From IMG/VR virus record IMGVR_UViG_3300027021_000002, positions 3,572-67,571 of that record: a DNA stretch of 64,000 nt. One strand, written 5' to 3'. Every line of letters begins with the position of its first letter. Positions within the stretch are counted from its first letter, which is position 1. Below are positions 20,507 through 64,000 of this stretch, in pieces. The position numbers were made by a program, and so were the translations under genes. Below the pieces are notes generated by a model. That model saw only the letters and a list, made by a program, of their open reading frames with translations. It did no database searches and was not told the DNA's origin. This stretch comes from a virus.

Positions 20507-23500
20507 GAGACATAGTAAAGGTTTAATAATCAATAGGAGGTATCATGATGGATCATATAGTTATCAATCTGAATCAAGGCAAGTTGGACATATTGGAAGA
20601 CGTGGAGTATTATCTCTCACCGAAAAGTCAAGCCACAACAGATAAGATTATGGATGAGATATGGGACAACTTGACCAAAGATTTTTACATGGATGAATGC
20701 TATCAAATCTTTGCCCGTGGTGTCTATTTGGGGCAAGCAAGGCGATAGAATAACCGGGGTTATACTCCCCGGTATGCGTCTCATACTGCATGTGGGGCGT
20801 GTACCGGACAGTATAATAGGAAGGAGCGCACACCATGAAAAAGTTAGCTATAATCATTATAGGAGTTAGCACCATAGCGTTATACGCGCTTGGATTGCTT
20901 TACATTATTCAATTGTGCATAGCTTGAAACAATTAAATCGAACGTTTTAATGCTTTGAACGTGATATAATCAAATTGATATAAGGAGGCAAATACAATGA
21001 CTATTAAGCGAGTACCAGTCAGACCTATTAGAGACGAAGAGCCAACGTTAAATATCCCTAAGAAATACCAGCACATGATAGATGATTGGTATTATGATGC
21101 AGACGGATACTGGATACAATTAAAACCTGGATATATTGACGGTGGTACGGGTATTAATTTAATCCACGAAGACACGCAAAAACGAGCATTGCAAGCCATA
21201 AGGGAGGTAAAACAATCATGAAAAACAATTGTCCAAACTGCGGTTGCTCTACACATGAGAACATTAATGAATCTTTTAGGTGTCCGTCCTGCGGGTGGAT
21301 TCCAGGCCATCAATGCGACAGGTGTGAGGGATACACACTGAATGATACCGGGTATCTTGTGTGTGATGAATGCGGTTATGAGATTTGTTCCGGTTGTGTT
21401 CGCAAAATGAGATTAGAACACGTCACAAAATGCCCTCATTGTGGTAATGATCACTTTTTAGAACATACCATGATGCTTTGCGAACTTCTTCCTATACTTG
21501 ATACGAATATGAATATTGAGGTATGGAGTGATGATAAATTAATAGCATCCGGCTTAGTAAGAGATTTTGACTCGTCTAATTGGGCGTATGTTATCCAATC
21601 ACCTATTACATACAACGGAGAACATGGTATAATCGTTTTTATAGGTGATAATTAACAAATAGAAAGGAGGACGCAAGCAGGGTTATTCCCTGCATTGAGG
21701 GTCACACAATGGCCTTCAGTGGAAGGAATGAAACGATAGGAGGGTATCACAATGGACGAATTGAAAACCTGTAGCTGGTGTAATGAAGAGTATGAAGAAA
21801 GTGAATTAAAGCAGACCAGTCACGGCCTACTCTGCCATACCTGCATACTGGCAATCAAGAGCAGAGGAGAGAAAATAACAATCACGGAATAACAGACCAT
21901 TGTTGAGGGTTTAAGGATTAAACCGAAACAATCACAGGAAGGAGGTTAGACTATGATAGCAGGTGTTATATGTTTATCAATTGCCTTTGTACTATTCTCT
22001 ATATGTCTTGTAACGTGGTTTATTGGGCGTTATGATGAAATTATATGGGGCGTCGGTAGTCTATCCGTACTATCCTTTGTAATTGCCGCATTATCATTAT
22101 TTGATGTGTCTATATGGATATTTAATATATCTATTATTATAGTAGCTGGTACACTTTTAATCATGTGGCTAAACCCTAAACAGGAGGCGTAATAATGGGA
22201 GTAAGAAACGAACATAACCGGGTAAAATCTGAACCCATCGAAAAGGACTTTGATACAGTCTTGAAAAAGGCAAAGGTGTATTATCGCCCTTGCAAACAGT
22301 TTCTTATCTATACTGTCCATATTGGGGAAAGCGTATGGTATGCGGCAGGATACGCCACAACAGACCATAAGCCCCTACCGGACACAACAAAGAAATATGC
22401 TTTTATCAATGGAAGATGGAAAGAGACGCCACACACGGACATAGACGGATATCATAACACGATTATGGAACCCGGTATTGACTTCTGTAAATCTTGTATG
22501 AGTACCAATCTATGGGGGCCAATGGAGGAAGACGGGAAATGGAATACATACTGCAACCAATGCGGAATGAAGCAATAACAGACTTGCAGCGTGGACAATT
22601 GACGATGGTTTTACAAGGTAAAACAGAGTCAAAAGCAATAAAAACCCGATTTTATTATATGGTATAATATTAATCATAGGAGGATAACAAAAATGCTAGT
22701 ACATTTAAACGGTGAGGAATATTTTACAGTAAAAATATCTAGTCTCAGAATGTGGGACGATAAAGAGGAAATAGCAAGGGCGAAAGCTGAAGCAAAAGCG
22801 GCAGGGTTTAACCCGTCAACCATTCAACGTATGACTGAACATAACGAATGTTTTTATACATTCAGTAAATAATCAATAACAGCAAGCAATAAAAATTTAA
22901 TTATTGGCAGGAATAACAAAAGCCATGGCGAATATAATAATATCGGTTGTAATTGCTTGAATAACAAGCGTTATGATAAAATTGAAACTATTGGAGGTAT
23001 TGACCATGAGAGACTATATTGAAGTAGAAAGCGCAATACGCGCAATACCGGGCATTATAACAGTAACCCCATACAGGACTAACAACCTAATAACTCCCTG
23101 GGTGACTGGCTTTATTCCTCTTGTGGATGGTATAGAGGCGGAGATTACATATGGGACAGCTTTCGGCGGCGGTTATTCGGTAGGGTTTACCCTGTTCAAA
23201 AATCAAAAATTAATGCCCATCGAAGACCGCGAAGCATATGACAAGTGTTTTATGGACTACGAAATAAAACAAATCGCAGCATATGCCGAAACGGTCAAAG
23301 AACAGTTAAAGAAAGCGGAGGTATAACACTATGGAATTTTGGGAATTGAAAGAAAAAATCGAAAACAAAGGCGGCGAGTCTCACTTTTTTGATCACGACA
23401 CACTAAAGTTTTTCGGGGAGCGGCTTTCGGATATGCGGGTATTGAAAGATACTGTAAACATAACCGATTATAGCGGGGACGTTCACGAATGTTATGTGAT

Positions 23501-24862
23501 ATCTGTTACCCGCAGAAAAAATGCTTTCGGGCCTTGCAAGCCGTATAGATTCTATCACTATTTCGATGTGAACACATACCAGCACATAACAAGACCCTAG
23601 TTATTAAATAAATTAAGGAGGATTAGAACCATGTTTAAAAAGGAATTTACTGAAGAAGAAACAAAGAAGCTAGAACGCGCTATAAACCGTTATGCGTTCG
23701 GGCCAGACTTCCGCATTACACACGGTAAAACGGAGCATGACAGGCTTGATACCTTTGGGTGTCCCTATACCTCATCCGGTGAGTTTGCCGGACTATGGAA
23801 CACGAACACAGAAACCCTGAACCATAACGGGGATCGCCTGGACGGTTTTGTCATGGATGAACATGGATCCATGTACGCGCTTTATACCGTGTATGACGAA
23901 GCGGGAGCAGAGGCGGGATCAAGTACAATCAATCTGAAAACGGGAGAGTATAGCAGAGTATGAAGAAGGACAAGGGCGGCTGTATGAATGCCAGGGATCG
24001 CAAAATGCAAAGCGTTTTATACTGTTATCGCAAAGGTAAAACGGTATCAGTTAAAACCGATTGCGCTCGGTGTGAGTTGCGCGACAAATATTAAACCCCG
24101 TAGGGGTATCAATAACGGACATTAAATGGAGTTATCAGGAGGTAATACAATGGAACCCATAACAGAGGCACACAAAGAAGTTATAGAAAAGAATTTAAAC
24201 GGATATATTGCTAACTTTGAAACCCCATACATTGTATATGATGGTGGTGGCATCGGTCAGGCGGTAGCCTGGGGAGATCATGAAAGATTTTATGTCTACC
24301 GTAACAAGTCAGAATATGATAACGGCGGGGAGTATGTGCAGTATTGCTATGATATCTCCTACCTGGACGGATGGCTTTATGGAGCAGTCCAGGCCGCTTG
24401 TGGACAGTTACGGAAGAGATAACAAACTATATCAATAACGGACATTTTACAGTAGTAAAATGGAGTTATCACGAAAGGAGGGAACCAAAATGACTATTCC
24501 ATATGGCGAAGTCCAGGTAATCACGAAAGAGGACGGGAATAACAGACTGTGCGCCCGTATCTATGACGGAGGCAAGGACGTTACAGAGTTTTTCGATGGT
24601 GTCCTGGGGCGGTATAATAAGCGTGATGGCCTTGTGATCACTGGTAAAAATGAGGTTGACCGCTTTTACCGTGATACCCGCCCGGCTATTCGTAAAGTCA
24701 TTGGCGTTGCGGTAGCATAACGGTAAAAATTTAATTAAGGGGTGATGATACGAATAACACGGCATAACGGGCGGTAGTATGTGACCGCTATCGCCCGGAT
24801 TAGTTTTGTGTTAAGGGTCTATAGGGCTTTTAATGGAGAACTAAACAAAAGGAGGTAAAATT

Positions 24863-25135
24863 ATGACCGTAAAAGAGGCAAAAGAAACCAGGGGCAAACT
24901 TACCTATTTACCGCCAAAACAAAACCCCTTATCCGCGCTTTGTAAAGCGTGTGACGATGAATTTATCAATACTATCCTGTCCCTGCATCCGTGTAAATGC
25001 GGGGAGCATAACGGCGTTACAATGGACACAAACGGGTATAAATGGCGTGTTGTCTGTTCCTCTTGTGATAACGATACATATTTATCATCGAGCTATCACG
25101 AAGCCGCACAGACATGGAATGATTGGAACGTATAA
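24863..25135 (+). CDS. Lar-like (restriction alleviation family) zinc-ribbon protein
   Basis: 'LHPCKCG...RVVCSSC...EAAQTWN' pattern. Confidence 0.55.
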   Translation: MTVKEAKETRGKLTYLPPKQNPLSALCKACDDEFINTILSLHPCKCGEHNGVTMDTNGYKWRVVCSSCDNDTYLSSSYHEAAQTWNDWNV

Positions 25136-25236
25136 CAGACAATTAAAAAGCGCGTTTCATCTATTTGATGAATCAAGCGACAATTTAGCATTTTACCCGT
25201 TTATATAACGGGAATTAATAAGGAGGATAACAGAGT

Positions 25237-26144: not shown

Positions 26145-26477
26145 ATGTCAGAATTAGCTTTCAAACGCCGTTCAACTTCTATACTCAATAACAGTAACGA
26201 TGATCACATTAATACCTATGTCGCTATTGCCACAAGTGAGGGTAGGCCCATCACCAGCATACAGCAGTATACAAGCCGTGTTGGGCAGTTTGCCCGATGG
26301 CTTGATCGCGACTTGTTGACTGTTACCCTAGAGGATATCGAAAATTGGGCCAATGAGGGCAACGCATACAAGAAGAACCACATAACGGCCTTTTACAAGA
26401 CGTTTTTAACACATAACGTCAATGACTTCCAGGACAACATTGATAAAGACTTGCTTATTTACTTGGCGGTGCATTGA
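26145..26477 (+). CDS. Stand-alone integrase core-binding (SAM-like) domain protein, copy 1
   Basis: 'TSIQQYTSRVGQFARWLDRDLLTVTLEDIENW' resembles recombinase N-terminal helices; no catalytic domain; paralog of 31377-31691. Confidence 0.6.
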   Translation: MSELAFKRRSTSILNNSNDDHINTYVAIATSEGRPITSIQQYTSRVGQFARWLDRDLLTVTLEDIENWANEGNAYKKNHITAFYKTFLTHNVNDFQDNIDKDLLIYLAVH

Positions 26478-27172
26478 CAGTAAATATTTAATAAAGGAGG
26501 GTATAACAATGACCACCATAACAAAGAAAGACCTTGAATTTATTATCGGGGAACTTGACAGGGGGGCGTATGATGCGCGTGAGGCCATGAGAAACCCGGC
26601 GCATACCGTAGACCTTCCCCTCTTGCAGCTTCGCGCAGAAACGCTTGTAGCGAATGCCAACAAGCTACAGATGGCGGTTGAGCGCATGGATCGGAGTATT
26701 ATTATTGATTATCCCAATACCAAGCCAGAACCCGCACAACCTATCATTATAACAGTGCGCGGCGGTGTGGCTTGGTTGGAGGACGATACTAACCCGCAGG
26801 GCGTCCCTATCTCTATTCGTGACTATGACATTGAAGGACGTGATCCTGACACGCTGAAGGATTTACCCGTTGACGATGAGGGCAACTCATATGAGGAAAG
26901 GGGTAATGTATAATGTCTGAACTATTTGAAAAGCTGGAAAAGGCCAAGAATGCGGTAAAAGCAACACTTGAAAATGAGGCCACAATGGTTGATTTTCACG
27001 GCATCGTATACTGGGCGGGAGAAGTGGAACGGCTAAGGAAAGAAATCAAGGATCGTCTATAACAACCAATTAACGGACGTTTGCAACGCAAACGGAGTTA
27101 ACACAAATGAATCGGTAATTTTAATTAACAGGGATTGAGTTAACACTTTAAGTATTAGAAAGGAGTTTAATA

Positions 27173-28470: not shown

Positions 28471-31312
28471 TAATGGGCGTGATGGTATATTTCAAGGGGC
28501 CAAAGGATAAACGGTTTACCCCGATGGATATTAAGACAGGAGAACTACACAACCGCCTTATGTATGCCCCTATTTATGCCGACAGGATGATCCAGGACAT
28601 TAAAGAATGGATCGATCATAACAGGCAATGTGCTCCTGGATGCAGTTTGCAGATCAGGGAACCGGGTGGACGGGTGTTATATTAAGAGAAAGGAGATTCA
28701 ATAATGATTGAACCAAATGATATCCCGGAATTGTGGTACACAACTAAATCAGGACGAAAAAAGGTTATAAACTTCACAGGAGAAACCAAAGAAGACGCTA
28801 TCATTCAAGGAATAGCTTTTGTGGCGCGGAATTATAAGAATATAACACCAACTGCCGGAAGCGGATATTTATTGAAAGCATACAGGCAGTTTGTAAATGA
28901 AGCCACCACATAACAGACCAATAAAATGCACTTTTCATTACTGGGTGGTATAATGTGGTTATCACAGAAAGGACGGTAAATCATGAAACGAGTAATAGCG
29001 ATAACTTATGATGATGGATGTCCAGAAAGTAAATACCTTATTGACAGAGAGAATGAACAGTATGCCTATATTACAAGTGGTTGGGACGGGCAGAAAATGC
29101 GTTACGATAAAGTAAATAATCAGCTTGAGATTATGAAGCGTAGCGGAGAATATCAGGCAACGACGGATTGTATTATCCAGATTGATATTATCGATTAGTA
29201 GACTATAACAGAAAGGAGACATGTGATTATGAAAGCGATATTGGAACTCTCGTTCGATGATGAGAAAGGCATAACGTGTGAAATGTGTATGCTCTCTACT
29301 CACCAGGGAGCCACTGGTTTACACAACGTATGCACGGGGCTTGGAATGCGTCCTATATGCCCGGAGGAAGGATGCAGAAAAGATTGTCCGTTGAAGGTTG
29401 TATCCGATTAGTATAACAGAAAGGAGATACGCGGTTATGAAAAATTTATTGATGTTTAATCCTAGAAAATTTGAAGAGGTACACACCGTTGAATTGGGTG
29501 TGTATGAAGTAAAGAAAGAATCTTTATCATATCGAACTGATTCAGGTGATTTTGAAGATTGCGAATACAACAAAGAAAATCGTGAGAAATATCCAGACGC
29601 AATCTATAACGTATTCTTCGATGACGCAGACGGAGAGGAATCATGCTTGGAAGTGTGGCCCGATGATTACGCGAAAATGTGGTTGGAACTAATTGAGAAA
29701 AAATACGAAACTATAACAGACTTAGTTTATAAGGCTTATACGGATTCGATATACAGTAATTTGAATTCTCGACATCTGGTAATTATTAATAAGAGTGGAG
29801 AAGTCGATTATCGGATAGATTCGCGGGATAAAATACCTAACGATGTACAGAGCGGAGCGGCCATAATTGTATACAATGTTAATGGGCAGAATATTAGTCC
29901 AGATTATTTAAAATATTTTCAATATGAATGGGGGATTCCAGATTGCGCAGAGGAATTGTTGGCAAGGTATAACAATGAGTATAAGACGGATTTTATGGAT
30001 GTCGCGAAGGTTAATCAAGAGAATTTGATGTATGTATTACATCGGTATTTCCCTGAATGGATAGAAGAAATTCGATCATTAGAGATTGAATTTTGGGTAG
30101 AAGATTTTGATATTTATGAGGCGCTAGAAGAATTATTTGATTTAATGAAAGGAGAAATTTAATAATGGACAGGGTACAGGTGTTACAAAAATGTAATAAC
30201 AAAAGCGGATTCACTAAGCGTATATTTCTTGGTGTATTTGCAGACGAGTACAGCGTAAAGGAGTACACAAACAGACACCCGCTTGATAAAGGGAAGCATT
30301 ATGATGAATGGTACGAAAATCTCCCATATACAGTAGAAAAATATGAACAGGAGGGCTAACTATGATTCTAGCAATCGGTAAAATTAAAACCTATAGTAAC
30401 GACACCCGCACACCCGTAAAGTTTAATTATGACATAATAACGGGCATAACAGCCGCGATTGACAATAACGGCAATGTGCTTGCTGATTTCACTTGCCCGG
30501 ATGAAACACACGCCCTAAAGCATTGGCGCGAGACTAAGCATGTGTCTATTGATCAGGTATGCGCATGATGAATCATTATGATTGGCTTAGAGAAAATCTT
30601 CCTCATATCCTTGATAACTTATCTATTAATCCGTCATGGTCTGAAGGGCTTATAACGGGCCACGGTGATAAGTGTGACGGGTATAAGGAAAGATGGGAGC
30701 AACACGGCATACCTTTTCCTCATGGCGTAGCATATTACTTGCTGACCAGGATCGAGCCTTGGTCTGAAGAGGTTAGACAGACAAAGGATGGTTGGGTAGA
30801 TCCCGGTGAATGGGTGCTTGATAACTATAACAGGTTTGAGATTATCTTGCCGGAGGTATCATAATGTTGACTAAGTTACCCATCTATAAACCCGCAAGAT
30901 CCTATAACAGACTGATTAGGCGTGTTTGTGGATCAGCAGCACTTATAACACTTGCTTATGGCCTATGGTGGTTGTGGGGCGTATGGGTATACGATTAAGA
31001 ACACAGAAAACTAATTCAATTGGATGTTGTTTTGAAGCAGAATTAGAAAGGAGAACGTAACAGTGAAGAAGGGGCCACTGCCAATAATAGAATTTGAGGG
31101 TGTAACTTATAAATTGCGCAATCATAACATAACGGTGCCGGACTTTACGGCTATGAGCCATTTACATGTGATGGTGTGGCTTAATCAGAATACTATTGCA
31201 AAAGGACGTTTTAAAGAAAAGGTAGTATTGCCTAATTTAGATATTTCTCTAAAATGAAAGATTAAATTCATTAACGGAAATACCCGTAGGGGATTGAGTT
31301 AACATCTCATTG

Positions 31313-31376: not shown

Positions 31377-31691
31377 GTGAGTAGAACCAGAATTAAACTT
31401 GACAACGGGAACGATGAGCATATTAAAAAATTCATCGAGATATCAGAGCAGGAGGGAAAGCCCAGGTCTAGTATCGCCCAATACACTAGCCGGATGGGTC
31501 AGTTTGCCAGATGGCTAGGACGTGATGTGTTGACCGCCACCAAAGACGATTTAACTAACTGGATGGATAAGGGGAACGATTTTAAGAAGAATCATATAAC
31601 GGCTTTTTACAAGACGTTTTTAACAAATAACGTTGCAGGATTTCAGGATCGGATTGATCGTAGCTTGTTGTTGTACTTGGTAGTACATTGA
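31377..31691 (+). CDS. Stand-alone integrase core-binding (SAM-like) domain protein, copy 2
   Basis: 'SSIAQYTSRMGQFARWLGRDVLTATKDDLTNW...KKNHITAFYKTFLT' nearly identical in pattern to 26145-26477. Confidence 0.6.
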   Translation: MSRTRIKLDNGNDEHIKKFIEISEQEGKPRSSIAQYTSRMGQFARWLGRDVLTATKDDLTNWMDKGNDFKKNHITAFYKTFLTNNVAGFQDRIDRSLLLYLVVH

Positions 31692-32263: not shown

Positions 32264-32877
32264 GGTGGTAATTTGCATGGACGGTAATAACATAACAGAT
32301 GTGAGGGGTTTACGCCCTGGGACACCCGTTGAGATCCGAAACTACGATATAACGGGCGCAATGAAGCAACATATAGCTAATCGTGATCACACGATTTCTA
32401 TTGAGTATGACGAGCAGGGAAGGGCTTATATAAAGTCCGAGTATGATTTGGTCAAGGTGGGATAAAAGGAGGGTTTTAATTATGAGTGCGAATACGATGT
32501 GTGCGCTTGGGTATCGGATGATAGAGGCGCAACAAAATAGAATGCGATTTGAGGCTATGATACCGATTATGTCCTATAGAGATTTTGTATGGTCCCTAAA
32601 ACGTAGCATGGAAATGAGGATTAACGTATATCGTTCTTGGTGTTGCGATAATGGTATACAGGCAGAAATTAATTATGATGATCTTTCAGATATTAAAACG
32701 ATGTTAGGAAAGACAGATAATAGAGATTGCGGCATCATTCTTGACGCTGAAAAGTTACATGTATTAGAACAATGGGAAAAAGATCATGTTGAGGAATTGG
32801 TTGCGGCAATAAAGATAAAATGATGAATTTATTGCTAACGCAATTGTGGTAAAATGGTAAAGAAAGGAGTATTATTT

Positions 32878-37821: not shown

Positions 37822-38007
37822 ATGCCTAACTACATCACAGTAAAGCAAGCAGCTAAAAGGTGGGGAGTAACCCCCAGGCGCGTACAGCAATACCTGAAGG
37901 ATGGACGTATCGAGGGAGCATACAAACTGTCTCCGCGAGTGTGGTTGATTCCTGAAGACGCGGAGTGTCCTGCGAAAGAGACCGGGAGACCGAAGGAGGA
38001 GAAATGA
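37822..38007 (+). CDS. Excisionase-like winged HTH protein
   Basis: 'YITVKQAAKRWGVTPRRVQQYLKDGRIEGAYK...WLIPED'; ATG at 37822. Confidence 0.8.
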   Translation: MPNYITVKQAAKRWGVTPRRVQQYLKDGRIEGAYKLSPRVWLIPEDAECPAKETGRPKEEK

Positions 38008-41109: not shown

Positions 41110-41114
41110 GTTAT

Positions 41115-46617: not shown

Positions 46618-47738
46618 AAAGGTATAAGGCATACAAATTTAAGTTACTTCCTAATCAAAAACAGGCCGAATACTTTGATAGAGCATTTGGCGCAGTACGT
46701 TTTGTATTTAATAAAATGCTAGAAGAACGTATAGAAATGGAAGAGTTATATTTTGATGATCCTGAAATATATAGACAACATGAGTTTAAGACTTATACAC
46801 AGATAAAACACGAAAATCCATGGCTTTACGAAATTGATAATCAGGCTTTGGCAAATGCGAAGTTGAATTTAACAAATGCCTATGTACGATTCCGTGACCA
46901 ACCGAATAATGGATATCCAAAATTTAAATCAAAGAAAAGATGTATGTCTTATACAACCAATAACAATACGTTTGGAAAAATCCGTATTGATGGCAAATAT
47001 ATCCAATTACCTAAGATTAAGTGGGTGAAGCTAATTCAACATCGAGAGTTACCAGCAGACGGACGTATTTTTAAATGTACCGTTTCTAAGTCTGCCACTA
47101 ATAAATATTATGTTAGTATATTAATTGAAAGAGATGTTGAGGAAATACAATATAAGGTTGATAAAGAAAAATCAATCGGTCTTGATATGGGATTAAAGAC
47201 TTTCTATACCGATAGCCAAGGCGTGAAGGTTAACAGCCCAATAGACTATTCTTATATAGATCAGAAGCTTTCTCGCGTCAATAGACAAATAAGCAAATGT
47301 GAAGTTGGAAGTAAAAATCGTGATAAGCTTCAATTAAAAGCAAATAAGCTTCATGAGAAGCTTACCAATCAACGCAAAGACTTTTTGCACAAGAAGGCTA
47401 GACAAATCGCAGATGAATATGATGTAGCGTGTATAGAGGGTCTTAGCGTAAAAGAAATGGGCCAACATTATGGATACGGAAAGATGGTTCAGAATAATAG
47501 TTGGGGTGTATTTGTTGAAATTTTGGGACACAAGCTTGAAGAGCGAGGTAAAAAATTAATTAAGGCTGATAAGTATTATCCTTCTTCGCAAACGTGTCAC
47601 AAATGTGGAAGGATTAATAAGGACCTAAAACTTAAAGACCGTATATGGATTTGTCCGTGTGGCGAAACGTTAGACCGCGACATCAACGCTGCAATCAACA
47701 TCCGTAATGAAGGGCTTAGACTACTGGCAACAAGCTAA
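46614..47738 (+). CDS. tnpB: TnpB RNA-guided endonuclease (IS605/IS607 type), solo
   Basis: HTH start 'YKAYKFKLLP'; RuvC 'GLDMG', 'IEGL', zinc finger 'CHKCG...CPCG', 'DRDINAAINI'. True start ATG 46614 overlaps the HD gene stop; no tnpA nearby. Confidence 0.93.
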   Translation: MKRYKAYKFKLLPNQKQAEYFDRAFGAVRFVFNKMLEERIEMEELYFDDPEIYRQHEFKTYTQIKHENPWLYEIDNQALANAKLNLTNAYVRFRDQPNNGYPKFKSKKRCMSYTTNNNTFGKIRIDGKYIQLPKIKWVKLIQHRELPADGRIFKCTVSKSATNKYYVSILIERDVEEIQYKVDKEKSIGLDMGLKTFYTDSQGVKVNSPIDYSYIDQKLSRVNRQISKCEVGSKNRDKLQLKANKLHEKLTNQRKDFLHKKARQIADEYDVACIEGLSVKEMGQHYGYGKMVQNNSWGVFVEILGHKLEERGKKLIKADKYYPSSQTCHKCGRINKDLKLKDRIWICPCGETLDRDINAAINIRNEGLRLLATS

Positions 47739-47839: not shown

Positions 47840-47879
47840 ACCTGAATTTTAAATTTTAATTTTGTGAAAGGAGATTGTA

Positions 47880-48530: not shown

Positions 48531-48572
48531 TGAAATGTGAGTTTCATCGCTCAGTACGCGGAAGGAGGATAT

Positions 48573-51944: not shown

Positions 51945-51968
51945 ATAAAAGAGTGATTTTAAGTAAGG

Positions 51969-52454: not shown

Positions 52455-52528
52455 GATGAAATTAGAAATTCATTAACGAGAATGTGTGAAGACACATCTA
52501 GTTAACAATTTAATAAAGGAGATTAATT

Positions 52529-52834
52529 ATGAGTTTAAAACCATGCCCCTGGTGTCAAGAATCGCCCATTATTCTTTTGTGTACCGAAGAGGGGGATATA
52601 AAAAGTGAATCGTATCTGGAAGATCCATATTCTGGGGTTGGATATGCCCTTTCTCACCCGGTTGATGATTGTCCTATTGGAACGCATCAGAATGAATTTC
52701 TTGGTACTACAATCTATGACGCTTACAAAGAAGCTGAAGACGCGTGGAATAAAGGAGTTTGTAGTCATACTGATGAAGAATGGGACGATCTTATGGAGCA
52801 ACAGTGGGAAGATATGATGGGTGAGGATTTATGA
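52529..52834 (+). CDS. Lar-family restriction alleviation-like protein
   Basis: 'LKPCPWC...EAEDAWN'. Confidence 0.65.
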   Translation: MSLKPCPWCQESPIILLCTEEGDIKSESYLEDPYSGVGYALSHPVDDCPIGTHQNEFLGTTIYDAYKEAEDAWNKGVCSHTDEEWDDLMEQQWEDMMGEDL

Positions 52835-53310
52835 CAGACAAAATCGATTATTACATGATATATCAACATGAGTGGAGAAAAATACCGGATGACGTAGGGG
52901 TAGAAGCTTATGCCCAAAAGCTTTTGCAAAATGACCCGTACAGTCAAGGAGTAGGATATCTGAAAATGCAATATGTCTTAGACGACGACGGTACAGGTAT
53001 TGGGTGTTTTTGTTATCTTGTGCATGACTTTCCTGGGCTGATACCACAGATCACATCGGAAAAAGCGAAAGAGATAAAGGCTTTAGTTAAGATAAATTAA
53101 AGAATTTAATAAAAGGTGGGGAAAATTATGGGACACGTTGACAACGCATTATTCCATACTGTAAAGGCCATAGAGGAATGTCAGGGTATAATGGATAGAA
53201 CTATGGCTACTGATTTCGACGAAGCCCAGGCTGTGTATGCGAGGTATCTAAGCCTGTGTGAGATTGCCCTACAGCTTCAGCTATGCATTCAAGATATTGG
53301 CCCGAAAGAG

Positions 53311-53355: not shown

Positions 53356-53874
53356 ATAATAGAAAGGAGAAATTATGAACAATACATTAAAAACGATTTT
53401 ATTTTCCTTGGTGTATTTTATTTATTGTATTGTGATTGGGTTTTTAATTTCGGGTGGCATTCTTTATATACTTGGCATATTTCAAATTATCGTAACAGGA
53501 TTCTTCTTTGGGTGGTTGATTGGTATTGCTGCTGGTATTTTTGTAGTTGTTACTGGTAATTTGCTTATTTTAAAGCACATGTATTGAAATGCAAGATTTA
53601 ATAAAGAGGTAGAGATGAGAACAGATACTCCGATTACACAAGAGTATGTTAAAGAATTAAATAAATTATTGGATGACGCCCTGGTACAATGCGGACATAA
53701 GATTATTATGAAGTGGAATGAAAATCCGATTAAAATTGTTCCATGGAAGTATATTTACATGAAGCCAAAATTTATCCCTACAATATGTCAGGTATATGTG
53801 GAAAATGATCCAAGATTAACAAAATGGAAGAAAATAAAAAGATGGGTGCAAAAGATGTGGAGGAGGATGAAATT

Positions 53875-54090
53875 ATGAGCAAAGTGCCAAGGTGTCCGGT
53901 GTGTGGAGATAAGATAAAAATATACGAAATGGAAGAGGGTGGCTGCTTTGACGGGTATAATCCTGGCTGTATAAAATGTGATTATATGTTAGAAGTATTT
54001 TCTTTGACAAGATCAGAGGCTAAAAGCGAGTGGATAAAACATAATTTAAATGGTATTCAATTAGCAATTTATAAATCGATGATTAGATAA
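53875..54090 (+). CDS. Lar-like zinc-ribbon protein
   Basis: 'PRCPVCG...GCIKC...EAKSEW'; ATG 53875. Confidence 0.5.
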   Translation: MSKVPRCPVCGDKIKIYEMEEGGCFDGYNPGCIKCDYMLEVFSLTRSEAKSEWIKHNLNGIQLAIYKSMIR

Positions 54091-56308
54091 AATACTATTT
54101 TTAATAAAGGAAAGAGAAGATGAGCTGTAGGTATGAAGAAATAATAACCGAAATTGGAAGCGAGGCATACCCGGACGAAAACGGCGATCCGGTTCCTATG
54201 CCCGTCGAGATTCCTATCGGATCATATTGTCACCTGAAACAAGAATATAGCCCGGATTGTTCAAAGTGTGAGTTATGGAAGGAGGAGTCTTATCAATGAA
54301 ACGCAAAGACTTATTAGCTATTCCGAAAAGAGATAAAGAAGAAGTGCTACATGGAGTGGGATGTGTATATGTTATCCCGTCCCGCAGAAAACACGAGAGT
54401 GGCTATGCCTGTATGGATTTTGTGGCTGTGATCAGAGAAGATCAATCAATGATAGGGTTCGGCGGTGGTTGTGACGACATTTCGCTTAACGGAAATAAAT
54501 TCCGTATAGAGTGTGATTTTGAGTCAAAGTGTCTAAGTATTTGGAATAGTCATGGGACATTTACTGTATCAAAAGATCTGTCTTCGATTAAATTTATGGA
54601 GGAGAATTAACAATGTATTTAATTTTTATTTGTCGCAAATGCGGACACAACCTTTATGTAAAAGATACTCCTAACTTTCTAAAGAGGCTTGGCGAGATTG
54701 CAGTAATGGAATGTCCAAACTGTGGCGAAGAAGGTTATGAGAATTGGATATTAAGTAATGTGGCGCATAACTTTCCGGGAGAGGACTAGTTATGAGTAGC
54801 CTGAGTCTATGCAAATGCAGTGGTAAAGCAATACTGAAAGAGGGGTAATTAACAAAATGAAAGATGTAGATTATACGGCTATAAGTGGTACTGGCACCCT
54901 TGATCTTAGCAATATAAAGGGTACTGAATGTGAATTGCCAATACGCAAGTTATTGGATCTTGTTGATGATCTTGCATATATCGTGAAGAGATTAGCCGTA
55001 GCCTATGGGGTTACATTGGTCATTGCTATTGCGGCGTTTATTGCATTGTTAATTTGGTTATAGAAGGAGAATTGTAATGAAGTGTCCATATAGAACTATC
55101 GAAAACTATTACAAGAACGAAGATGTATATAGGACTAGCCAAGCAACGCTAAAAAGAGAACATCTAACACAAATAGTACCTTGTGTAAAAGAAGAAGCAC
55201 ATTTTGTTACAAATGATTTCGCTGACTGCTTACAAACTGAATGTGTCGCTTATCAAAACGGAGAATGTACACGGCTTAGATAAAAGCTGGATTTTAAGTA
55301 AAGGAGAAAGTTATGCATGACGTCAAAAAATATTTAGATAATTATGTGAGTAGTGATAATGATATTGATACAAGTCTTTACGCTCGATTGCTTGCATGGG
55401 AAATAAGCGAAGTATTTTCTTCTGATCGCTTGGTTGAACTCCTTGAGGCAGAAAAAGAAAATAGGATTTATATTAAGAAGACAAAATCAGACAACCCATT
55501 TTGGCAACAAAATCTTGATATGATGTTTGAATCGGGGCAAAATCTTTAATAAAAGTGCTAATTTAATAAAGGGGAGGAATTGTTTTGGGGCGATTAGAAT
55601 TGCGGTATTTTTTAGACGACGTTGAATGTAAAGAAGGTGATATTTTTTGTATTAATTTTTCTACACCCTACGGAGTCAGTTACGATGTGTGCACATTAAT
55701 TCATAAAGACGGAGTGTGGAAGTTTGCCGGAGAAGATGCGCTAGGTGAATTTAATTATAGGGCAGATGATGTTTGTATCCAAGATGTAAAAAGAGCTTAG
55801 ATGAAAGTGAGATTTTAAGTAAAGAAGGATAAGAAAATGAGCAGAAAATATATTGATGATTTAGGTGTTAAGTTTGAAGATACACCGCAGGGCTATAATA
55901 CGGACAGTAAAAAAGAAACAAGGTGGGGCAAATGGGAAGAAGAGCGTCAAACATATGGGTTTGATGAAAGAGAGACATGGTGTTTAGATTTAAACCTTGC
56001 TCTTTGGATGTATGAAAGATTGATGATGTATTTAGAAATAGCTTGGATAGATTTAGAATACCACACATTTGAATATAATGGAGAGACGTTAACGGAGCGA
56101 CAATGTATTGATAAAATGCTTGAGGGATTTAAGCTATTGATTTTAGATCATGGTGTTGTAATAGACGAAGAAAAATCAGCAAAAGTAGATGACGCTTTTA
56201 AGATATTAGGTATTTGTCATCATGCTTTATGGTGGTAAATAAAACAGACAATTCATCAAAGTGTTATTTGACTTGAATGCGGACAAAAATTAATAAGGAA
56301 GGAGAACA

Positions 56309-56590: not shown

Positions 56591-57841
56591 TTGAAACGGG
56601 ATCGAGGTCAATTAGAAAATATCATACTTGCGTGTTGGCAAGAAAACGAAAAAAATCGCGTCGGACATGATGCGCTTAGAAGTTATCTCTGGGATAAGTT
56701 CAAAATAGAGCCTGGGCATATATCTTCGCTAATTTCTGGTGCCAAGCGTATTGAGGGCGTGAGTGATCAATACTTGTGTGCGCTGGCGATGGCAACATAT
56801 GAGGTGTTTGGCTGTCAGGGAAGCAATCCGAAAGAATTCTTTACTGATGCGGAACTACAAAAAGTAAAGGAGACATCTTTTGAACCAACAAATTCATTAA
56901 ATGGAGATCTTAAGTTTGATGACGTTTCTTATGTTTGCAATGATCATTATTTTACTACCATATCGTCTCAATATTTAAGAGCCTTATTAGATGAGGGAAG
57001 ATTAATTTATCGTCCAGAAACTCAGCGAGGAACTATTACAAAACGCCAAGGTGACGCGATTATTCAAAAGGTGAGAATAAATCGTAATAATGTTACTGAG
57101 ATCGCTAATGATATCGAAGAAAATAAATATGAGCCAACTACTCTAACCATGAATGTGGTTAAGGGGAGTGGCGAGATGGTTTATGACGCTCGTAGCAGAA
57201 CTTTGATTGTTAGCAAGGGAGCAGAGTGTAATTTGATTGATGGGTTGCATCGCACATATGGTGTTATTCAGGCCATGATAGAGAATCCTGAAATCAAGCA
57301 GCCGTGGGAGTTTAGAATAGTTAATTGGTCAATTGAAAAGGCTAAGGCTTTTATTTTCCAGGAGGATCATAAGACGCCTCTTACCAAAGAAGTGCGCGTT
57401 TCGATGGATCAGCATGACCTTTCAACACAAATTGTAAGTATGCTTAATCAGGAAATGCATAATGAGATGCAGGGGCGAATCGCAACTGACATTCGTAGCA
57501 TAACTAAAGGGAAAGCCTATACGCTTTTCAGTATGATGGTGGATTCTGTTCGCAAGTTTTTGAAACCTCAATATCAAAAAGATGTTGAATCTATGACTAA
57601 AAGGCTTATTAGCTTTTATAACGCTCTGATTCCTATTATTAATAACAAAGACGACCTAATGAAGTATTATCTGTTTTATGGGTATACACAATTGGCATCG
57701 ATTCTTCCATCTTTAGATAATCTTGAAGAAGTGATAATAGCATTGGATCACAACCCAATTGAGAATTATGGTCAAAAGACATCTTTGGCTACTAAACATA
57801 AAAAGACCATAGAGAGGTGGATTAACAATGCCGTGGTATAA
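56591..57841 (+). CDS. DGQHR/DndB(ParB-like)-domain protein, SPbeta YopQ/SroE-like
   Basis: 'QRG', 'PTTLTMN', 'LIDGLHR', 'FIFQED' ParB/DndB-type motifs; directly upstream of a YopR-like gene as in SPbeta-like phages. Confidence 0.7.
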   Translation: MKRDRGQLENIILACWQENEKNRVGHDALRSYLWDKFKIEPGHISSLISGAKRIEGVSDQYLCALAMATYEVFGCQGSNPKEFFTDAELQKVKETSFEPTNSLNGDLKFDDVSYVCNDHYFTTISSQYLRALLDEGRLIYRPETQRGTITKRQGDAIIQKVRINRNNVTEIANDIEENKYEPTTLTMNVVKGSGEMVYDARSRTLIVSKGAECNLIDGLHRTYGVIQAMIENPEIKQPWEFRIVNWSIEKAKAFIFQEDHKTPLTKEVRVSMDQHDLSTQIVSMLNQEMHNEMQGRIATDIRSITKGKAYTLFSMMVDSVRKFLKPQYQKDVESMTKRLISFYNALIPIINNKDDLMKYYLFYGYTQLASILPSLDNLEEVIIALDHNPIENYGQKTSLATKHKKTIERWINNAVV

Positions 57842-58778
57842 TGAAGATCGCAAGAGGAAGTTTTTAAAAAGCAGCGACTTTTCAAGTGCTCAGAAAAAGG
57901 CTTACAAATTTCTGTTCAAGGCTTGCTATCCCACAGAACAAGCTTTTGATTCAGACGTGTCCGAATTTAGTACAACCGAATTTGAGAGCTTACTAAGTAG
58001 TTTTTTATCCACGTCATTAGAAAGCCTGAAAATGCGCACTAGTCTTATTCGTAGTTATATTGACTTTTGCATTAATAATGGATATGCGGAAACAAAAGAA
58101 GGTGATCCGCTACATATTAATGTTGCCGATGCTTATGTCGCAGAAGTCCTGGAGAAATTTGTGAGACCGGACGCTGAGGAAAAAAGATTTTTAGTTGGCA
58201 GGGATTTGGATAAGTTTATTGAATTTTGTAATAACCCACAGGATGCAGTTATCATTCAGTTGCTCCGCGAAGGTATTCGTGGTAGAAAACTAGAAGAGCT
58301 TAGTAATCTTCGTAGACAAGATGTGAATTTTAGTGACAATATAGTAACTCTGCGCCATGAAGATGGTAATAAAAGAGTATTGTCTGTTAGCCCTAAAACC
58401 ATAGAGCTAATTCAGGACGCCATAAATCAAAAGAAATATTACTTTAAAAACGGAGAAGCGACAGGGTACCTGAAAGAAATCAACTTAGAAGAATCTGATT
58501 ATATACTTCGTCCTGCCCATCGTCATGATGCTGACAAGTTCTTAAACCAAATTGGAATTAGTCGTCGTATTAAGGCAATGGCGAAATTGTATGGCAACTC
58601 TTTTATTACCGCCCATACTTTATTTGTAAGCGGCCAAATTGAATATGGAAGAATGCTGAAGGAAAGGGATGGAATTGATGAGTTGTATAAGAAGCACTAT
58701 TTGGAGATCTGTGAACGCTTTGGTTTGGCACCTACACAGGCTAACGCTGTTAAGTATGCTATCCAAAAACATTTGTAA
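57828..58778 (+). CDS. Recombinase-fold repressor, SPbeta YopR (MrpR/SroF)-like
   Basis: N-terminus 'YNEDRKRKFL', 'NPQDAVIIQLLREGI', 'SFITAHTLFVSGQIEY', 'RFG'; lacks the HxxR arginine and a clear catalytic H/Y pair. Confidence 0.75.
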   Translation: MPWYNEDRKRKFLKSSDFSSAQKKAYKFLFKACYPTEQAFDSDVSEFSTTEFESLLSSFLSTSLESLKMRTSLIRSYIDFCINNGYAETKEGDPLHINVADAYVAEVLEKFVRPDAEEKRFLVGRDLDKFIEFCNNPQDAVIIQLLREGIRGRKLEELSNLRRQDVNFSDNIVTLRHEDGNKRVLSVSPKTIELIQDAINQKKYYFKNGEATGYLKEINLEESDYILRPAHRHDADKFLNQIGISRRIKAMAKLYGNSFITAHTLFVSGQIEYGRMLKERDGIDELYKKHYLEICERFGLAPTQANAVKYAIQKHL

Positions 58779-59304: not shown

Positions 59305-59388
59305 GTCGGAGTGATGGAATGGCAGACGTGGGGGACTTAAAATCCCCTGGAGAAATCCGTGTGGGTTCGACTCCCACCTCCGATACCA
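59305..59388 (+). tRNA. tRNA-Leu(UAA)
   Basis: Class II cloverleaf with variable arm, GGGGA-CTTAAAA-TCCCC, A73, CCA. Confidence 0.93.
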
Positions 59389-59463
59389 TGGGGCGTCGCC
59401 AAGCGGTAAGGCACAGGACTTTGACTCCTGCACGCGTAGGTTCGAATCCTACCGCCCCAGCCA
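59389..59463 (+). tRNA. tRNA-Gln(UUG)
   Basis: T1-A72, CAGGA-CTTTGAC-TCCTG, G73, CCA. Confidence 0.95.
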
Positions 59464-59475
59464 AAAGGAGAAAAC

Positions 59476-62400
59476 ATGTTAGGCAAACATGGTGTAAATA
59501 AGATCAAAGAAGAGTTGGTAAAGGCTATTGATGGCAAATTGTATGCCATATATGTGGCACAAGAAGGAATGCTTTTTATATTAGACTTAATGGAATCAGA
59601 CAGCTTTTACGATGTGTCGCACGCTGTGTCAGACGTTTTATTCCATGCTACGGATGTTGACTTTATGTACAACGTGTTAGAGAAAAATGATTGGTATCAA
59701 GATATTGTTACTTATTTTTCTATGGAAAAGATATATCAAAAATGAAATGGAATTTTTAATAAAGGGGAGTAATATGATGGACAAACCTGTTCAAGATGAT
59801 ATTATTGATACTATGATGAATGTGGGAGTTCCGGCTGAGAAGATTTTTAATATGATGCAATTAATGCGTAATTGCCCCGAAGCGTTCCCGAAGAGTTTTT
59901 CTAATAAGCAAGCTAGAGAATCATTTATGAGTGGGATTTGTGGAGATTATTATAAAAAATCATAGACAATAAGAAATTAATAATTATGCAGATAAATGTA
60001 TACAAACTAATGCATAAACATGCATAACAGAAAGGAGATTGAAAATGAAAAGATTAACCGAAATGAGTCGAGATGAATTATTAGATATGACGGATCAGCA
60101 GCGTGAGGAATTAGCGGATCTTGAGTGTGCATATGAGGGAATACCTCTTCTGCCAGAAAGACCACAAGAAGCGGAGATCAATTACCCCGAAAGAGATGTA
60201 ACTATTTATGCGGTAGACGGTCATAACTTTACCGATGACGAAGAGGCAATTGGATATTGTACTTTTGTAAATAATCTCACATCCTTAGTCAAGATTGATT
60301 ATGACTGGGGCTTAGGATCTGGCGACTTTAAATATGTAAGTCGTCAGGAGCCGCCCAAAAGAGAACTTGAGAAAAAGAGCGTGTATAGTAATGATGCATA
60401 TGCAGAGCTAAAGGCAGAACTAAAACGCACCAAGACACAAGAAGAAGTGTATAAAACAAAGGTTAGTGAATACAAAGATGCTCTGGGGAAACGCACTAAG
60501 GTATATGATAAGATCGATTCTGCGGTTCATGATGCATGGGAAGAGAAACGTCGTGAAGACATGCTAGTTCGGGCATATCAAAAGTACCTTACTTTAACCG
60601 AAGATAAGGATATTGCTATAAAGTTGTTAAGGGACGCTTATGATATTACAGAAGCGGAAGAGGCGGCTATTCTAGGGTTGTGTAATTAAAATTTGTTTTT
60701 CAATAAAGAAAGGAGAAAATATTATGTTTTTTGTTGTATTTGGTGTCGCTACTGTGTTATGTATCGCATTGGCTGTGTGGGCCGGAAATAGCCAGTGGTC
60801 ATATGAAAATGATTGTGAGGTATGGATACCATCTGTCGCCGCAACTCTTGCCGTAGGATTCTTTATTACTGTAATTGTTGGAATATTTACTTATACTGGG
60901 AACCTTACATACCCTGCAAAATTTGAGGCAAACAAAGCTGCCGTTGAATATGCGCTAGAAAAGGAGAGTGGCGACGAGACTAAACCAATGGATGGGATAG
61001 AGGACTTCTCCATAACAAAACATCTTATGGAGGTCGCTTCTAGTTGGAACCAAAGTCTCGCGCAAAAGCAATATTGGAACGAAACGTGGCTATGTGATTG
61101 TCTATACCCTGATGAAGTTATGGATCTTGAACCAATCCAGTAAAAGTCAAATAACGGGGCTATATGCCCCACATATGCGGGTGTGATGGAATTGGGATAC
61201 ATACTTGCCTTAGAAGCAAGGTTCTGGGAGTTCGACTCTCCCCACCCGTACCAAAATACCATATATAGTATAACAGACTTATAATACATACAATATATTG
61301 TATAATAACAGCAATAAAATACCCATTTTAAGTAAGGAGGAAATATGAAAGGTAAAGATTTAGACGTGTATTTAAAAGTTGCTAGGTTAGAGGGGGAAGT
61401 TCGTGCAATGAGACTCAAACGTCTACAAGACGAACTCAAAATCGATTTTGCTGGCATTGCAATAACGGACTTGAAAAATCGTGTTAAAACGTTAGAGTGG
61501 AATACAGTGGGAAAGATATGGGAGAAATGTAGCTGGGGGCGTATTGGCATACTATTGGGAGATATGGTTTACGAATATCAATATCCATATATTGATGACG
61601 ATTCTGCTTATGATATTGATAAAATTAAAGATATTAGACTTATTAAGTCTAACGTTGTGGAAATTATATATGACGACAAAAATAAAAGGGAATCTTCAAA
61701 ACAGTTCTTTGTTGATATGGAGCAAAAGAAGTTAATAGAAATAAAGTAATGAAAAGTGGATTTTAAGTAGGGAGTAATTTTATGACTATCCAAGAATTTA
61801 ATCAGCTACCTAAACAAGAACAAGAATATTGCCTTGAGTATATAGAAAAGTTTAATGACATTGTGGATTGGAATGCTATTTCTCCAGATACGGCAATAGA
61901 TGCCTTAAGAGTTATTGGTAGCATGTGCACTGTTGGAGGATTTGATTCTGAACGCCTCACGGCTTTACTAAAAGGCTTATATCCACGTTTAGTGGAATAT
62001 GCGCCAGATGAGTCGGTAAGAGGGACTATAGAGGATGCTATGCAATATTCCGTAGAGACAAAACGATTTGTAGATTTTTGGAATAAAGCATATCAAAGTA
62101 ATTAAAATTGTATTTTTAATAAAGGAGTAGAAATATGACAAAAGCAAAGAGAAAATTAGACCAGATTGTTCGCCAACTAGAAAGGATCGACGAGGCGTTA
62201 GTAACGGATTCGCGTCAGAATTATTGTCACGTTTGCAACCAAACACATCAAAATCTTTTACGAATGATTGACACAATATGCTGGAATGATGGTGACGAGT
62301 TATATGCTAATGGTCAAGGTAGGAGGCACTTTTATAGATATTTCTCAAACCTCAATAAACCGAAAGAGATACAAAATGCGTAACATACTCCCAGATCTTG

Positions 62401-63673
62401 AATCTGCATACAAGATACTCAATACCATTACGTCTATGTATAATCAAACGCTTGGTGCTATGCAGAATTGCGAAGAAGAAGAAAACGACATAAGACATGC
62501 CTTTGAGCTTTGTGATCTGAAGTATGAAGACCGGGCAAAATTAGCTACGAGGCAAAGTCTTGTCCTTAAAGAACGTCGTAAGTATAAAGATATGCTTAAT
62601 GTCATGGAGCCTCTTTATAAGCTTATGCAGGAACAGACCAGTATTGATTTTATGAAACGTATGTCTATTATACTGGGTGAAACACGTAAGGTCGAAAAGA
62701 AACGCGGGTATCGATGCTATAGAAATAGGACCAGTGTTGTTAAAGATGTTCTTAACCGAGACATCCAAACCAATACTGGGACGGAGGGGTAGGATGGATG
62801 GAGCAAAATTATTAAGAAAATACATTCAGGATAAAACTATGCATTATAACCACCTTCGTAATTTATATCTTAATAATCATAGACAAACTCCGTCAACACT
62901 ATATGAGGATGGTTATCTAGCTGGCATATGTCACGCCATAAAGGAAGTAAATAGAGACTTGATCAGAGATAATGAAGATGCAGAAGAAATAGTTAACCAT
63001 AAGATCGGTAGGGGTATCGGATGGTATAGAGTACCCAGTCTTTAATGAAAGTTAAATTTTAAGTAAGAGGTAGAAAAATGCAAGGGACATATGGATATGA
63101 TCACCGTGACAATATTCGCGTCGAAATACACAGAGTATTTGTAACAGAATCAGACGATTGCAAAGAATATAGTTTTTCTGCACAAATATATTTAAATGAA
63201 AATTTGGTTTTCGAAAAAGAAATTAATGAAAGATATAGCATACCCTTTTGGGACATGCGCGATAGTTTAATTGAAGGACTTGCTCGTGATATTGCTTTAG
63301 AACGATGGCTTACTGAAAATAGTTTAGAGCGTAGCAGAAAGACAAACATGCCAATACCACCAGAACCAAAAGTGGTTGTTGAGGATTTTAGTACGAGGGA
63401 GAATAAATGAAAATACAAGATGCGTTTCCACTCCTTGGAGAGACAAAGCTGCCGTGGTATCAAAGGCTATGGTTATTGATTATTCGCAAGACTCGTTTTG
63501 GGGTATCATACAGTCGCGGTACATCAAAGAGTTGCTTAGAAATAATGAATATGTTTGAGCGCCTAAAGCAAAGTGCCAAAACGAGCGAAGAAAGGCAGAT
63601 ATTAGAACAAATGCAAAAAGAATATGGTGAGACTATGCACGATCTAACAATGTCATTCTGGAACAGCTTTTAA
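59476..63673 (+). other. Further hypothetical ORFs separated by junction palindromes
   Basis: About 11 ORFs of 70-216 aa with RBSs; another ORF starting near 63706 runs off the window. Confidence 0.75.
61177..61252 (+). tRNA. Atypical tRNA-Leu(UAG) with short variable loop
   Basis: CTTGC-CTTAGAA-GCAAG anticodon arm, A73, CCA; 76 nt, no long variable arm, acceptor/T helix one pair short. Confidence 0.75.
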
Positions 63674-64000
63674 TAAAACTATAATTTTAAGTAAGGAGAA
63701 CGGTTATGCAAATTGATTTACCATTTGATATTGGGGACACGATATTTGATATTTGTCTTGGTAAAATTGATGAAGAGGTTATAGAGGGTGTCGAAATAAT
63801 AATTCATACATCTGATGGCATATTTACACTACCAGATTTCAAAGGTGTAGTATTTAAAAGTCGTGATGCCGCGCAAGCTGCGTTGAATTGTAAGAAGTGT
63901 ATACAAGAGGGCAAAACAGAAGTATGTCATGATTCTAAAACGGGATTACAGTGTCCAAATTGGTTTTATAGAGAAGCGGCAATTAAAGGAGAGATATTAT

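Follow-up and report, generated by a model that had tools for sequence, protein, structure and literature searches.

A 16-base palindrome with position-specific spacers at module borders of SPbeta-like phages

We analyzed a 64,000-nucleotide stretch of a phage genome (IMG/VR record IMGVR_UViG_3300027021_000002, positions 3,572 to 67,571; hereafter the window) and found that gene junctions in its early region carry a 16-base palindrome, TRAAA-N6-WTTYA (hereafter the junction site), whose six-base middle (N6) differs from junction to junction within one genome and is kept, in the same order, at the equivalent junctions of related phages. Homology blocks shared by relatives start and stop at the edges of this motif, and the genes enclosed by a fixed pair of sites differ between phages. 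Why the mosaics of tailed phages are joined precisely at gene borders has long been debated, and two views have been put forward, one invoking homologous linkers between modules and the other random illegitimate recombination followed by selection. The junction site offers a defined border across a phage family that includes the genetically tractable Bacillus subtilis phage SPbeta; its fixed arms look suited to a protein, and its middle, specific to each position, has changed less than the genes on either side.

A sharply defined repeat array

The two strands of the window held 78 matches to the motif, compared with 6.35 +/- 3.5 (maximum 16) in dinucleotide-preserving shuffles, an enrichment that the first-pass annotation of this DNA had named beforehand as a check. 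That annotation had also put about 35 copies between 22639 and 63689; the array is there, whereas the number was too low, with 40 of the window's 41 + strand sites lying in this interval. Across the whole 125,197-bp phage contig we counted 74 + strand sites, 59 of which match on the - strand too, and the array therefore reaches well past the window. A scan of spacer lengths from 0 to 14 bases showed enrichment at six bases only (74 versus 5.2 expected; 2-16 at the other lengths), which confirms the proposed invariant spacer, and a weight-matrix search added few degenerate copies, indicating that the family is sharply defined. The site logo reads (T)(W)(R)(W)-TRAAA-nnnnna-TTTYA-W-K-W-A-A-G-G, with five strict positions per arm and, at -3 to 0 and 17-20, a weak symmetric bias that overlaps with the signal of stop codons and of the Shine-Dalgarno (SD) sequence and is confounded by it. 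Arm degeneracy is mirror-symmetric under reverse complementation (R at 2 and Y at 15; W at 5 and W at 12). No N6 is repeated within any one genome, where chance alone would give only about one repeat; reverse-complement second copies of an N6 in SPR, L3, L6 and Goe12 are located inside genes and look like chance occurrences. A scan of viral contigs with the motif plus SD pattern returned only single chance matches per contig, and a literature search, to which the original SPbeta genome paper did not belong, found no paper on the palindrome.

Spacers are conserved by genome position

Two metagenomic contigs, L007 (6.9 kb) and L144 (7.9 kb), come from relatives whose proteins are 45-83% identical to those of the phage studied here (the query phage). 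Of their 18 sites, 12 have an exact-N6 partner in the window segment 51.9-61.3 kb, in the same order, and in three more the N6 departs from that of the window partner at one or two positions; the 35 query sites beyond this syntenic stretch gave zero N6 matches. In the exact pairs, N6 was identical at 72 of 72 positions, the arms were 90-92% identical with changes confined to the allowed letters, and the 30-nt flanks were 34% and 44% identical, which is the chance level. Identity at conserved junctions extends over 28-32 nt, SD region included. Cargo also differs between fixed sites: from 51946 (gagtga) to 52457 (ttagaa) the query phage has a SpoU methylase and L144 an unrelated 139-amino-acid (aa) protein, and the site at 60687 (tttgtt) is retained although both relatives have an additional gene, a different one in L007 than in L144, between a conserved 216-aa gene and this site. 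The gene that follows the ttagaa site encodes a Lar-type restriction-alleviation protein in L144 (615-947), and the corresponding window frame (52529-52834) gives a weak Lar match (E 0.0011).

Pfam and tblastn comparisons identified the query phage as a distant SPbeta-like phage, with homologues of MrpR/YopR, YopQ, yonF, yonJ and yorL (putative DNA polymerase) and, beyond the window, a SprA-like serine recombinase. Megablast and blastn searches of the phage collection for close relatives returned tRNA matches only, no relatives emerged from genome, viral and metagenome contigs scanned with MrpR or a 214-aa protein, and identical copies from three samples (L004-L006) held no sequence variation. 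The junction site is nevertheless widespread in the SPbeta group. SPbeta has 44 + strand copies (8-10 in shuffles), nearly all of them TAAAA-N6-TTTTA at gene ends, and ten further Spbetavirus genomes have 41-52 copies each (6-10 in shuffles). Given that the query phage and the SPbeta group have no nucleotide similarity, the element has been retained across deep divergence.

Over 55 genome pairs of the SPbeta family, 1829 of 1836 shared N6 were collinear. Since relatives retain the N6 of every junction, unchanged and in collinear order, spacer matching seems to be important; this points to the opposite of the Tn916-like tolerance of non-matching overlaps suggested at first. Orthologous SPbeta-family junctions diverge by about 4-5% everywhere, which is too low to separate arms, N6 and flanks.

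Homology blocks end at the edges of the motif

An unbiased blastn survey of SPbeta against ten relatives gave 293 distinct homology-block ends. Fifty-five of them (19%) fell within -12 to +28 of the motif, a zone that makes up 1.8% of the genome, with clusters of block starts at coordinates -1 to 1 of the motif and of block ends at 16-17. A breakpoint was present at 31 of 36 motif junctions versus 62 of 150 other junctions, and at 18 of 20 versus 32 of 65 when only gaps of 16-150 nt were considered. At junctions sharing one flank only, the entire site including N6 goes with the shared flank (170/174; 146/150 unique pairs). For 15 pairs of consecutive addresses, the cargo in between is unrelated from one SPbeta-family phage to another, and several sites are identity islands, in which only the 16-22 nt of the site are identical and unrelated DNA lies on both sides. 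Isolated identity islands are mostly junction sites, multicopy repeats such as SPBRE, a published SPbeta repeat bound by MrpR (PMC10516654), aside. Clean indels among the 11 SPbeta-family genomes often end exactly at position 16 or inside the left arm. With block ends at the motif edges and different cargo between fixed address pairs, the sites are indeed, as had been predicted, points at which modules differ between related phages.

A dispersed repeat, TTTAGAATAAAAATAAAATTAG, is the source of most non-palindrome identity islands; it occurs in SPbeta family genomes, often between the palindrome and the next SD (e.g., L003 13680-13700, record 113680-113700, and 32763-32785, record 132763-132785).

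Placement relative to genes

In the + strand block, the junction site is present at 64 of 173 gene junctions. Where the gap measures 16-60 nt, 43 junctions have a site and 20 do not; at 61 junctions the genes overlap or lie at most 15 nt apart, leaving no space for one. The site was said to lie at or just after a stop codon. Of the 80 site-orientations with a nearby long-frame stop, 57 have an upstream stop codon whose first base is at -4, -3 or 0 relative to motif position 1; the motif's own TRA serves as the stop codon in 32 cases. The next SD often follows 4-6 nt beyond the site. The distance to the next start codon is more variable than that to the stop codon, and some sites are isolated, being followed by a promoter (22639, 28922), preceded by a tRNA and promoter (61315) or placed ahead of terminators after - strand late genes, which suggests that the junction site is a unit of its own at gene ends and not part of the ribosome-binding site.

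The motif divides the early region into one- or few-gene units, in line with the first description. None lies between Rnl, Pnk and radical SAM, a block bracketed by the sites at 48531 and 51946, nor between YopQ and YopR, and the structural operon (1-20 kb) has matches at chance level only. Fusion of the motif to TTAACG at 31255, 37497 and 52457 was likewise seen again. The sites and their degenerate or relaxed copies in the window are as follows, with stop codons in motif coordinates.

22639-22654, +, TAAAA-acccga-TTTTA; extended -10 (TGGTATAAT) just downstream
24456-24471, +, degenerate copy TAAAA-tggagt-TATCA, one arm mismatch; SD follows
25144-25159, +, agcgcg; upstream stop at -11, promoter region next
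27108-27123, +, relaxed copy TGAAT-cggtaa-TTTTA
28922-28937, +, tgcact; stop at -11, extended -10 promoter downstream
30146-30161, +, ggagaa, the next gene's SD; possibly a chance or hybrid copy
31255-31270, +, gattaa; own TGA is the stop, TTAACG fused
32463-32478, +, ggaggg, an SD; own TAA is the stop
32816-32831, +, tgatga; stop within the spacer (+5)
34397-34412, +, caggga; stop at -4, after a 513-aa PMT_2 gene
35403-35418, +, cgtata; stop at -4, then SD and ATG
36247-36262, +, tatgta; stop at -7
37012-37027, +, gaatat; own TGA is the stop
37497-37512, +, gcagaa; TTAACG fused
38160-38175, +, tgctgg; stop at -3
38901-38916, +, tgatgc; stop at +5
39865-39880, +, taacgt; stop at +5
40669-40684, +, atatct; stop at -3
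41440-41455, +, cggcgg; own TGA ends a 59-codon frame
42042-42057, +, ccgggt; no long frame ends here, promoter-like TATAAT on the 3' side
42290-42305, +, aatgaa; stop at +7
43102-43117, +, tcaaac; own TGA is the stop
43364-43379, +, tcgagc; own TGA is the stop
43584-43599, +, tcaagt; stop at -4
44034-44049, +, relaxed copy TGAAT-caaact-TTTCA; own TGA is the stop
44519-44534, +, relaxed copy TAAAT-acataa-TTTTA; stop at -4
44757-44772, +, actatc; own TGA is the stop
45954-45969, +, tcgtaa; stop at +8
47843-47858, +, relaxed copy TGAAT-tttaaa-TTTTA; after the TnpB gene
48531-48546, +, tgtgag; left border of the Rnl-Pnk/HD-radical SAM block
51946-51961, +, gagtga; right border of the radical SAM block, 28 nt identical in L144 beside unrelated genes
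52457-52472, +, ttagaa; TTAACG fused; with 51946 encloses the SpoU methylase, in L144 the unrelated 139-aa gene
53093-53108, +, TAAAT-taaaga-ATTTA; L144 counterpart TAAAA-taaaga-TTTTA
53585-53600, +, tgcaag; own TGA is the stop
54088-54103, +, tactat; own TAA is the stop
55281-55296, +, gctgga; N6 same in L144 and L007
55550-55565, +, gtgcta; N6 same in L007
55802-55817, +, gtgaga; N6 same in L144 and L007, three arm variants
56240-56255, +, cagaca (cacgca in both relatives); last before the XRE-YopQ-MrpR unit
59743-59758, +, tggaat; same in L007, tgaaat in L144
60687-60702, +, tttgtt; 32 nt 100% identical in L144, 39/40 in L007, where extra unrelated genes precede
61315-61330, +, taccca; preceded by tRNA and promoter, not an open reading frame; N6 same in L007
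61750-61765, +, agtgga; stop at -3
62103-62118, +, ttgtat; own TAA is the stop
63046-63061, +, gttaaa; stop at -3
63674-63689, +, ctataa; stop at -3

At several promoter-proximal junctions (25125-25143, 28903-28921 and 61297-61314), the palindrome has another short motif, ATAACAG(A)C(A)A, immediately 5' of it. The most compact form of the junction is found at 30146 and 32463, where N6 itself is the SD (ggagaa, ggaggg) and the start codon lies 4 nt past the site.

The site is probably a DNA element

Sites that abut stop codons, often 4-6 nt ahead of the next SD, could also be intercistronic RNA elements, namely hairpins, processing sites or translation termination/re-initiation signals read in the mRNA, and intercistronic processing is familiar from early phage mRNAs, as at the RNase III sites of T7 and with RegB in T4. 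Such a role is very improbable here. Pairing of the arms would cost +1.19 kcal/mol on average, and the 36-nt site context folds no better than shuffled sequence (-2.77 versus -2.1 +/- 1.9). At the variable arm positions (2/15 and 5/12) and in the flanks there is no covariation, with A:C, A:A and T:T combinations as frequent as independent columns predict. Compensatory arms had been proposed from the TAAAT/ATTTA copy at 53093; this copy exists, and it faces TAAAA/TTTTA with the same N6 in L144, but it is a single symmetric double change and not a general property. The symmetric arm degeneracy without covariation, together with the unstable helix, argues for recognition of duplex DNA by a symmetric protein and not for folding, and an RNA hairpin can be excluded. 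Copies also occur before promoters, after tRNAs and ahead of terminators, an Rfam search gave no match at junction sites, and an RNA role does not account for an N6 kept independently of both adjacent genes. A sigma-factor promoter, a NusG pause site and a restriction/modification target were rejected as well, since they do not fit the symmetric arms, the conserved N6 and the placement at gene ends.

Crossover joints as a tentative reading

We tentatively favour, with a confidence that stops short of an even chance, the view that the sites are crossover joints which are recognised by a protein and act enzymatically, with position-specific spacers that have to match. The constant inverted arms TRAAA/TTTYA, weakly extended into the flanks, would be read by a paired phage protein, and the six-base middle, different at each junction of one genome and kept at the equivalent junction of relatives, would be the matching (overlap) region in which strand exchange may take place. 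Crossover would then occur only between equivalent joints of two phage genomes in one cell, so that DNA between two joints could be exchanged without flanking homology and with gene order preserved, while distinct middles would guard against deletions between the many sites of one genome. The most likely enzyme would be a conserved YopP-family tyrosine recombinase, encoded in the window from 18444. The more specific proposal that this family recombines only equal-spacer 16-bp sites, and that 45-85 addressed joints per genome form a natural system of recombinase-mediated cassette exchange by which coinfecting phages and prophages swap modules without homology, is possible but doubtful. If the joints were enzymatic, nature would thereby offer a new tool with which cassettes could be exchanged in an ordered, multiplexed fashion, and the joints would explain how accessory genes, including many of unknown function, circulate among SPbeta-like phages.

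Several observations weigh against enzymatic joints. The strictly conserved arms comprise just 5 bp, which is short for recombinase binding elements. Clean indels mostly have a site on one side only, an outcome that two-site conservative recombination alone does not give. In phi3Ts x SPbeta laboratory hybrids, all interpretable crossovers are located within stretches of identity 55 nt to 18 kb long, as is usual for homologous recombination, and are compatible with the presence as well as the absence of exchange at the sites. The phi3Ts/SPbeta identical blocks used by the hybrids themselves start and stop at junction sites. A contig with a YopP-like gene and about 10 kb of early genes (L151) has 5 motif copies versus 4.6 in shuffles. 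In addition, N6 would have to be conserved through an indirect advantage, with selection favouring exchangeability.

Homologous linkers and docking sites

The hybrids are what one would expect of short homologous linkers, as in Botstein's modular theory, where general or phage-encoded homologous recombination acts with no dedicated enzyme and otherwise different modules have nothing in common but an identical junction of 16-30 nt (motif plus SD). The 28-32 nt of identity at conserved junctions fit this explanation, and insertions with a site on one side suit a mixture of homologous with illegitimate events. In T4-type phages, PeSLs (promoter-early stem-loops) act in this manner and resemble the junction site in being short repeated intergenic elements of a plastic early region, adjoined by differences in gene content and proposed to mediate modular shuffling; in contrast to the 16-bp site, they measure about 100 bp, carry a sigma-70-type early promoter and a terminator hairpin and are similar enough to recombine with one another, whereas the junction site has neither and keeps a unique middle by genome position (PMC2839356, PMC4122927). 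Promoters or terminators stand beside only some copies of the site. Homology alone, however, leaves the shared palindromic arms and the invariant six-base spacer unexplained, and many SPbeta-family cases share 16-22 nt only, below the length that efficient homologous exchange usually requires. We regard the linker explanation as quite unlikely.

Symmetric arms at a distance of one helical turn, without covariation, would equally suit helix-turn-helix (HTH) or ParB-type dimers, and the sites may be docking sites at gene ends for a paired regulatory or architectural DNA-binding protein that silences or insulates prophage transcription. The many gene-end copies, some of them preceding terminators or promoters and some in the late region on the - strand, agree with such a role, for which stoperators of cluster A mycobacteriophages, KorB/ParB-type operators and YopQ as a ParB/DndB-like reader are possible models; YopQ is conserved between the query phage and SPbeta. 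Stoperators are a phage precedent for repressor sites scattered in dozens of short copies through the intergenic DNA of temperate phages, but they are asymmetric, bound by a monomeric immunity repressor, oriented with transcription and devoid of a variable addressed core (PMC9283540, PMC6550527), whereas 59 of 74 sites here match both strands. On this model, module borders would coincide with the sites because bound sites are hot spots for template switching or because one site per junction is kept by selection. A spacer not read by the protein should drift, yet in comparisons of divergent relatives no stretch of the junction is better conserved than N6. That blocks end precisely at positions 1 and 16 would also call for an extra mechanism. 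Overall, we consider a docking site rather unlikely.

The known master repressor is not the reader of the site, because chromatin affinity purification sequencing (ChAP-seq) of MrpR in SPbeta gave peaks at ten SPBRE (PMC10516654) and not at the roughly 45 palindromes, which also speaks against docking. SPBRE is similar in that it is an SPbeta-like repeat bound by a recombinase-fold protein; it differs in being a 15-bp motif of other sequence, with about ten copies at promoters, and in that MrpR is without catalytic residues (PMC10516654). The palindrome itself is not SPBRE, which reads AAATACAAAWAATATGTATA in nine MrpR target promoters.

Comparison with site-specific recombination systems

The first-pass annotation rightly noted that inverted arms around a fixed six-base spacer have the geometry of a tyrosine-recombinase core site, for which spacers of 6-8 bp are typical. 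In dif, lox and FRT, partner sites have a common spacer, as do the junction sites (12 of 18 sites in the query lineage have an identical N6, and 1829 of the 1836 N6 shared within the SPbeta family are collinear). Arms of the dif, lox and FRT class measure about 9-13 bp; those of the junction sites have five strict positions, with weak preferences extending into the flanks. Heterospecific lox/FRT sites, with equal arms and different spacers, recombine only when spacers are equal, which gives an in-register cargo swap and avoids internal deletions. The junction sites are proposed to follow the same logic; those systems are man-made, with 13-bp arms, 8-bp spacers and a proven mechanism, whereas the logic proposed here is drawn from comparative genomics only. 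The pdif sites of Acinetobacter plasmids are 28 bp long, with 11-bp arms bound by host XerC and XerD. Like the junction sites, these pdif/dif modules have inverted arms and a 6-bp centre and flank accessory modules in different backbones (PMC6449649), with differing cargo between two sites (here one query-lineage and 15 SPbeta-family address pairs); unlike them, the junction sites have 5-bp arms with weak flanks and another arm sequence, and they are phage-borne, number 45-85 per genome and are ordered by their spacers.

The array was initially interpreted as integron-like, with promoterless cassettes that a recombinase able to act on non-matching overlaps would capture singly in circular form. 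An array of small genes in one orientation, separated by tyrosine-recombinase-type sites and with a tyrosine recombinase gene upstream, does recall integrons with their attC/attI sites and IntI. attC sites, however, are imperfect palindromes of 57-141 bp, contain R''-L''/L'-R' boxes, vary in sequence and are read as folded single strands, whereas the junction sites are 16 bp long and defined by sequence, with position-specific, conserved spacers. Integron cassettes enter at attI behind one promoter; we found no distinct attI-type entry site, and the junction sites spread over about 90 kb and several promoters. Integration of a cassette circle would leave a site on both sides of the insert. With shared sites nearly all collinear and insertions usually lacking a site on one side, the comparative data appear to largely refute the integron-like anatomy, which we consider hardly credible.

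Candidate proteins

The following gene products were considered as possible readers, enzymes or helpers.

18444-19520, +, YopP-family tyrosine recombinase, 358 aa, Pfam Phage_integrase; putative reader or enzyme
106324-107865 of the genome (outside the window), -, SprA-like serine recombinase, 25% identical to SPbeta YokA over 500 aa
56591-57841, +, YopQ-like DndB/ParB-type protein; putative alternative binder
57828-58778, +, MrpR (YopR) homologue; SPbeta MrpR binds SPBRE, a different element
26145-26477 and 31377-31691, paralogs of 104-110 aa, 61% identical; sub-threshold matches to the integrase N-terminal SAM-like domain
37765-38007, HTH_17 protein

The 18444 gene, located 3 kb before the first site, was correctly annotated as a recombinase. 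Its product is 22% identical to SPbeta YopP (E 6e-10) and belongs to a YopP-like family of 199 representatives with about 25% identity; YopP is an SPbeta core gene of unknown function (PMC8612738, PMC10516654). An alignment of 75 members shows no exchange at R171, K203 or Y304; H268 is present in 74 of them and H295 in 70 (three have W), and position 271 is always basic (K in 60, R in 15), a Lys in place of the second Arg being unusual. On this alignment, the YopP-like residue pattern is that of an active enzyme, unlike that of MrpR. The 18444 recombinase may possibly be the enzyme that acts on the junction sites. The true integrase of the phage is probably the SprA-like serine recombinase and not the 18444 protein. 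Among further contigs with YopP-like genes, L150 has 6 motif copies versus 1.55 in shuffles, and L152 covers structural genes only. Helper proteins proposed at first found little backing: the 26145 and 31377 paralogs resemble the SAM-like domain below threshold only, and the presumed excisionase-like gene is that of the HTH_17 protein at 37765-38007.

IscB, TnpB and tRNA genes also occur in the window. An IscB-type gene (Pfam RRXRR and HNH; 14631-15854, -) lies directly downstream of a full-length HEARO RNA (125.6 bits; 15876-16083, -), and together they form an RNA-guided nuclease module within the phage late operon. A full TnpB gene (OrfB_IS605, Cas12f1-like TNB) is present at 46557-47738 (+), and a 173-aa protein with the TnpB HTH domain only is encoded at 17403-17924 (-). 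The early region holds five dispersed tRNA genes (41034-41188, 59305-59460 and 61177-61250, +), one of them just ahead of the site at 61315, and a sixth is in the late operon (13195-13267, -).

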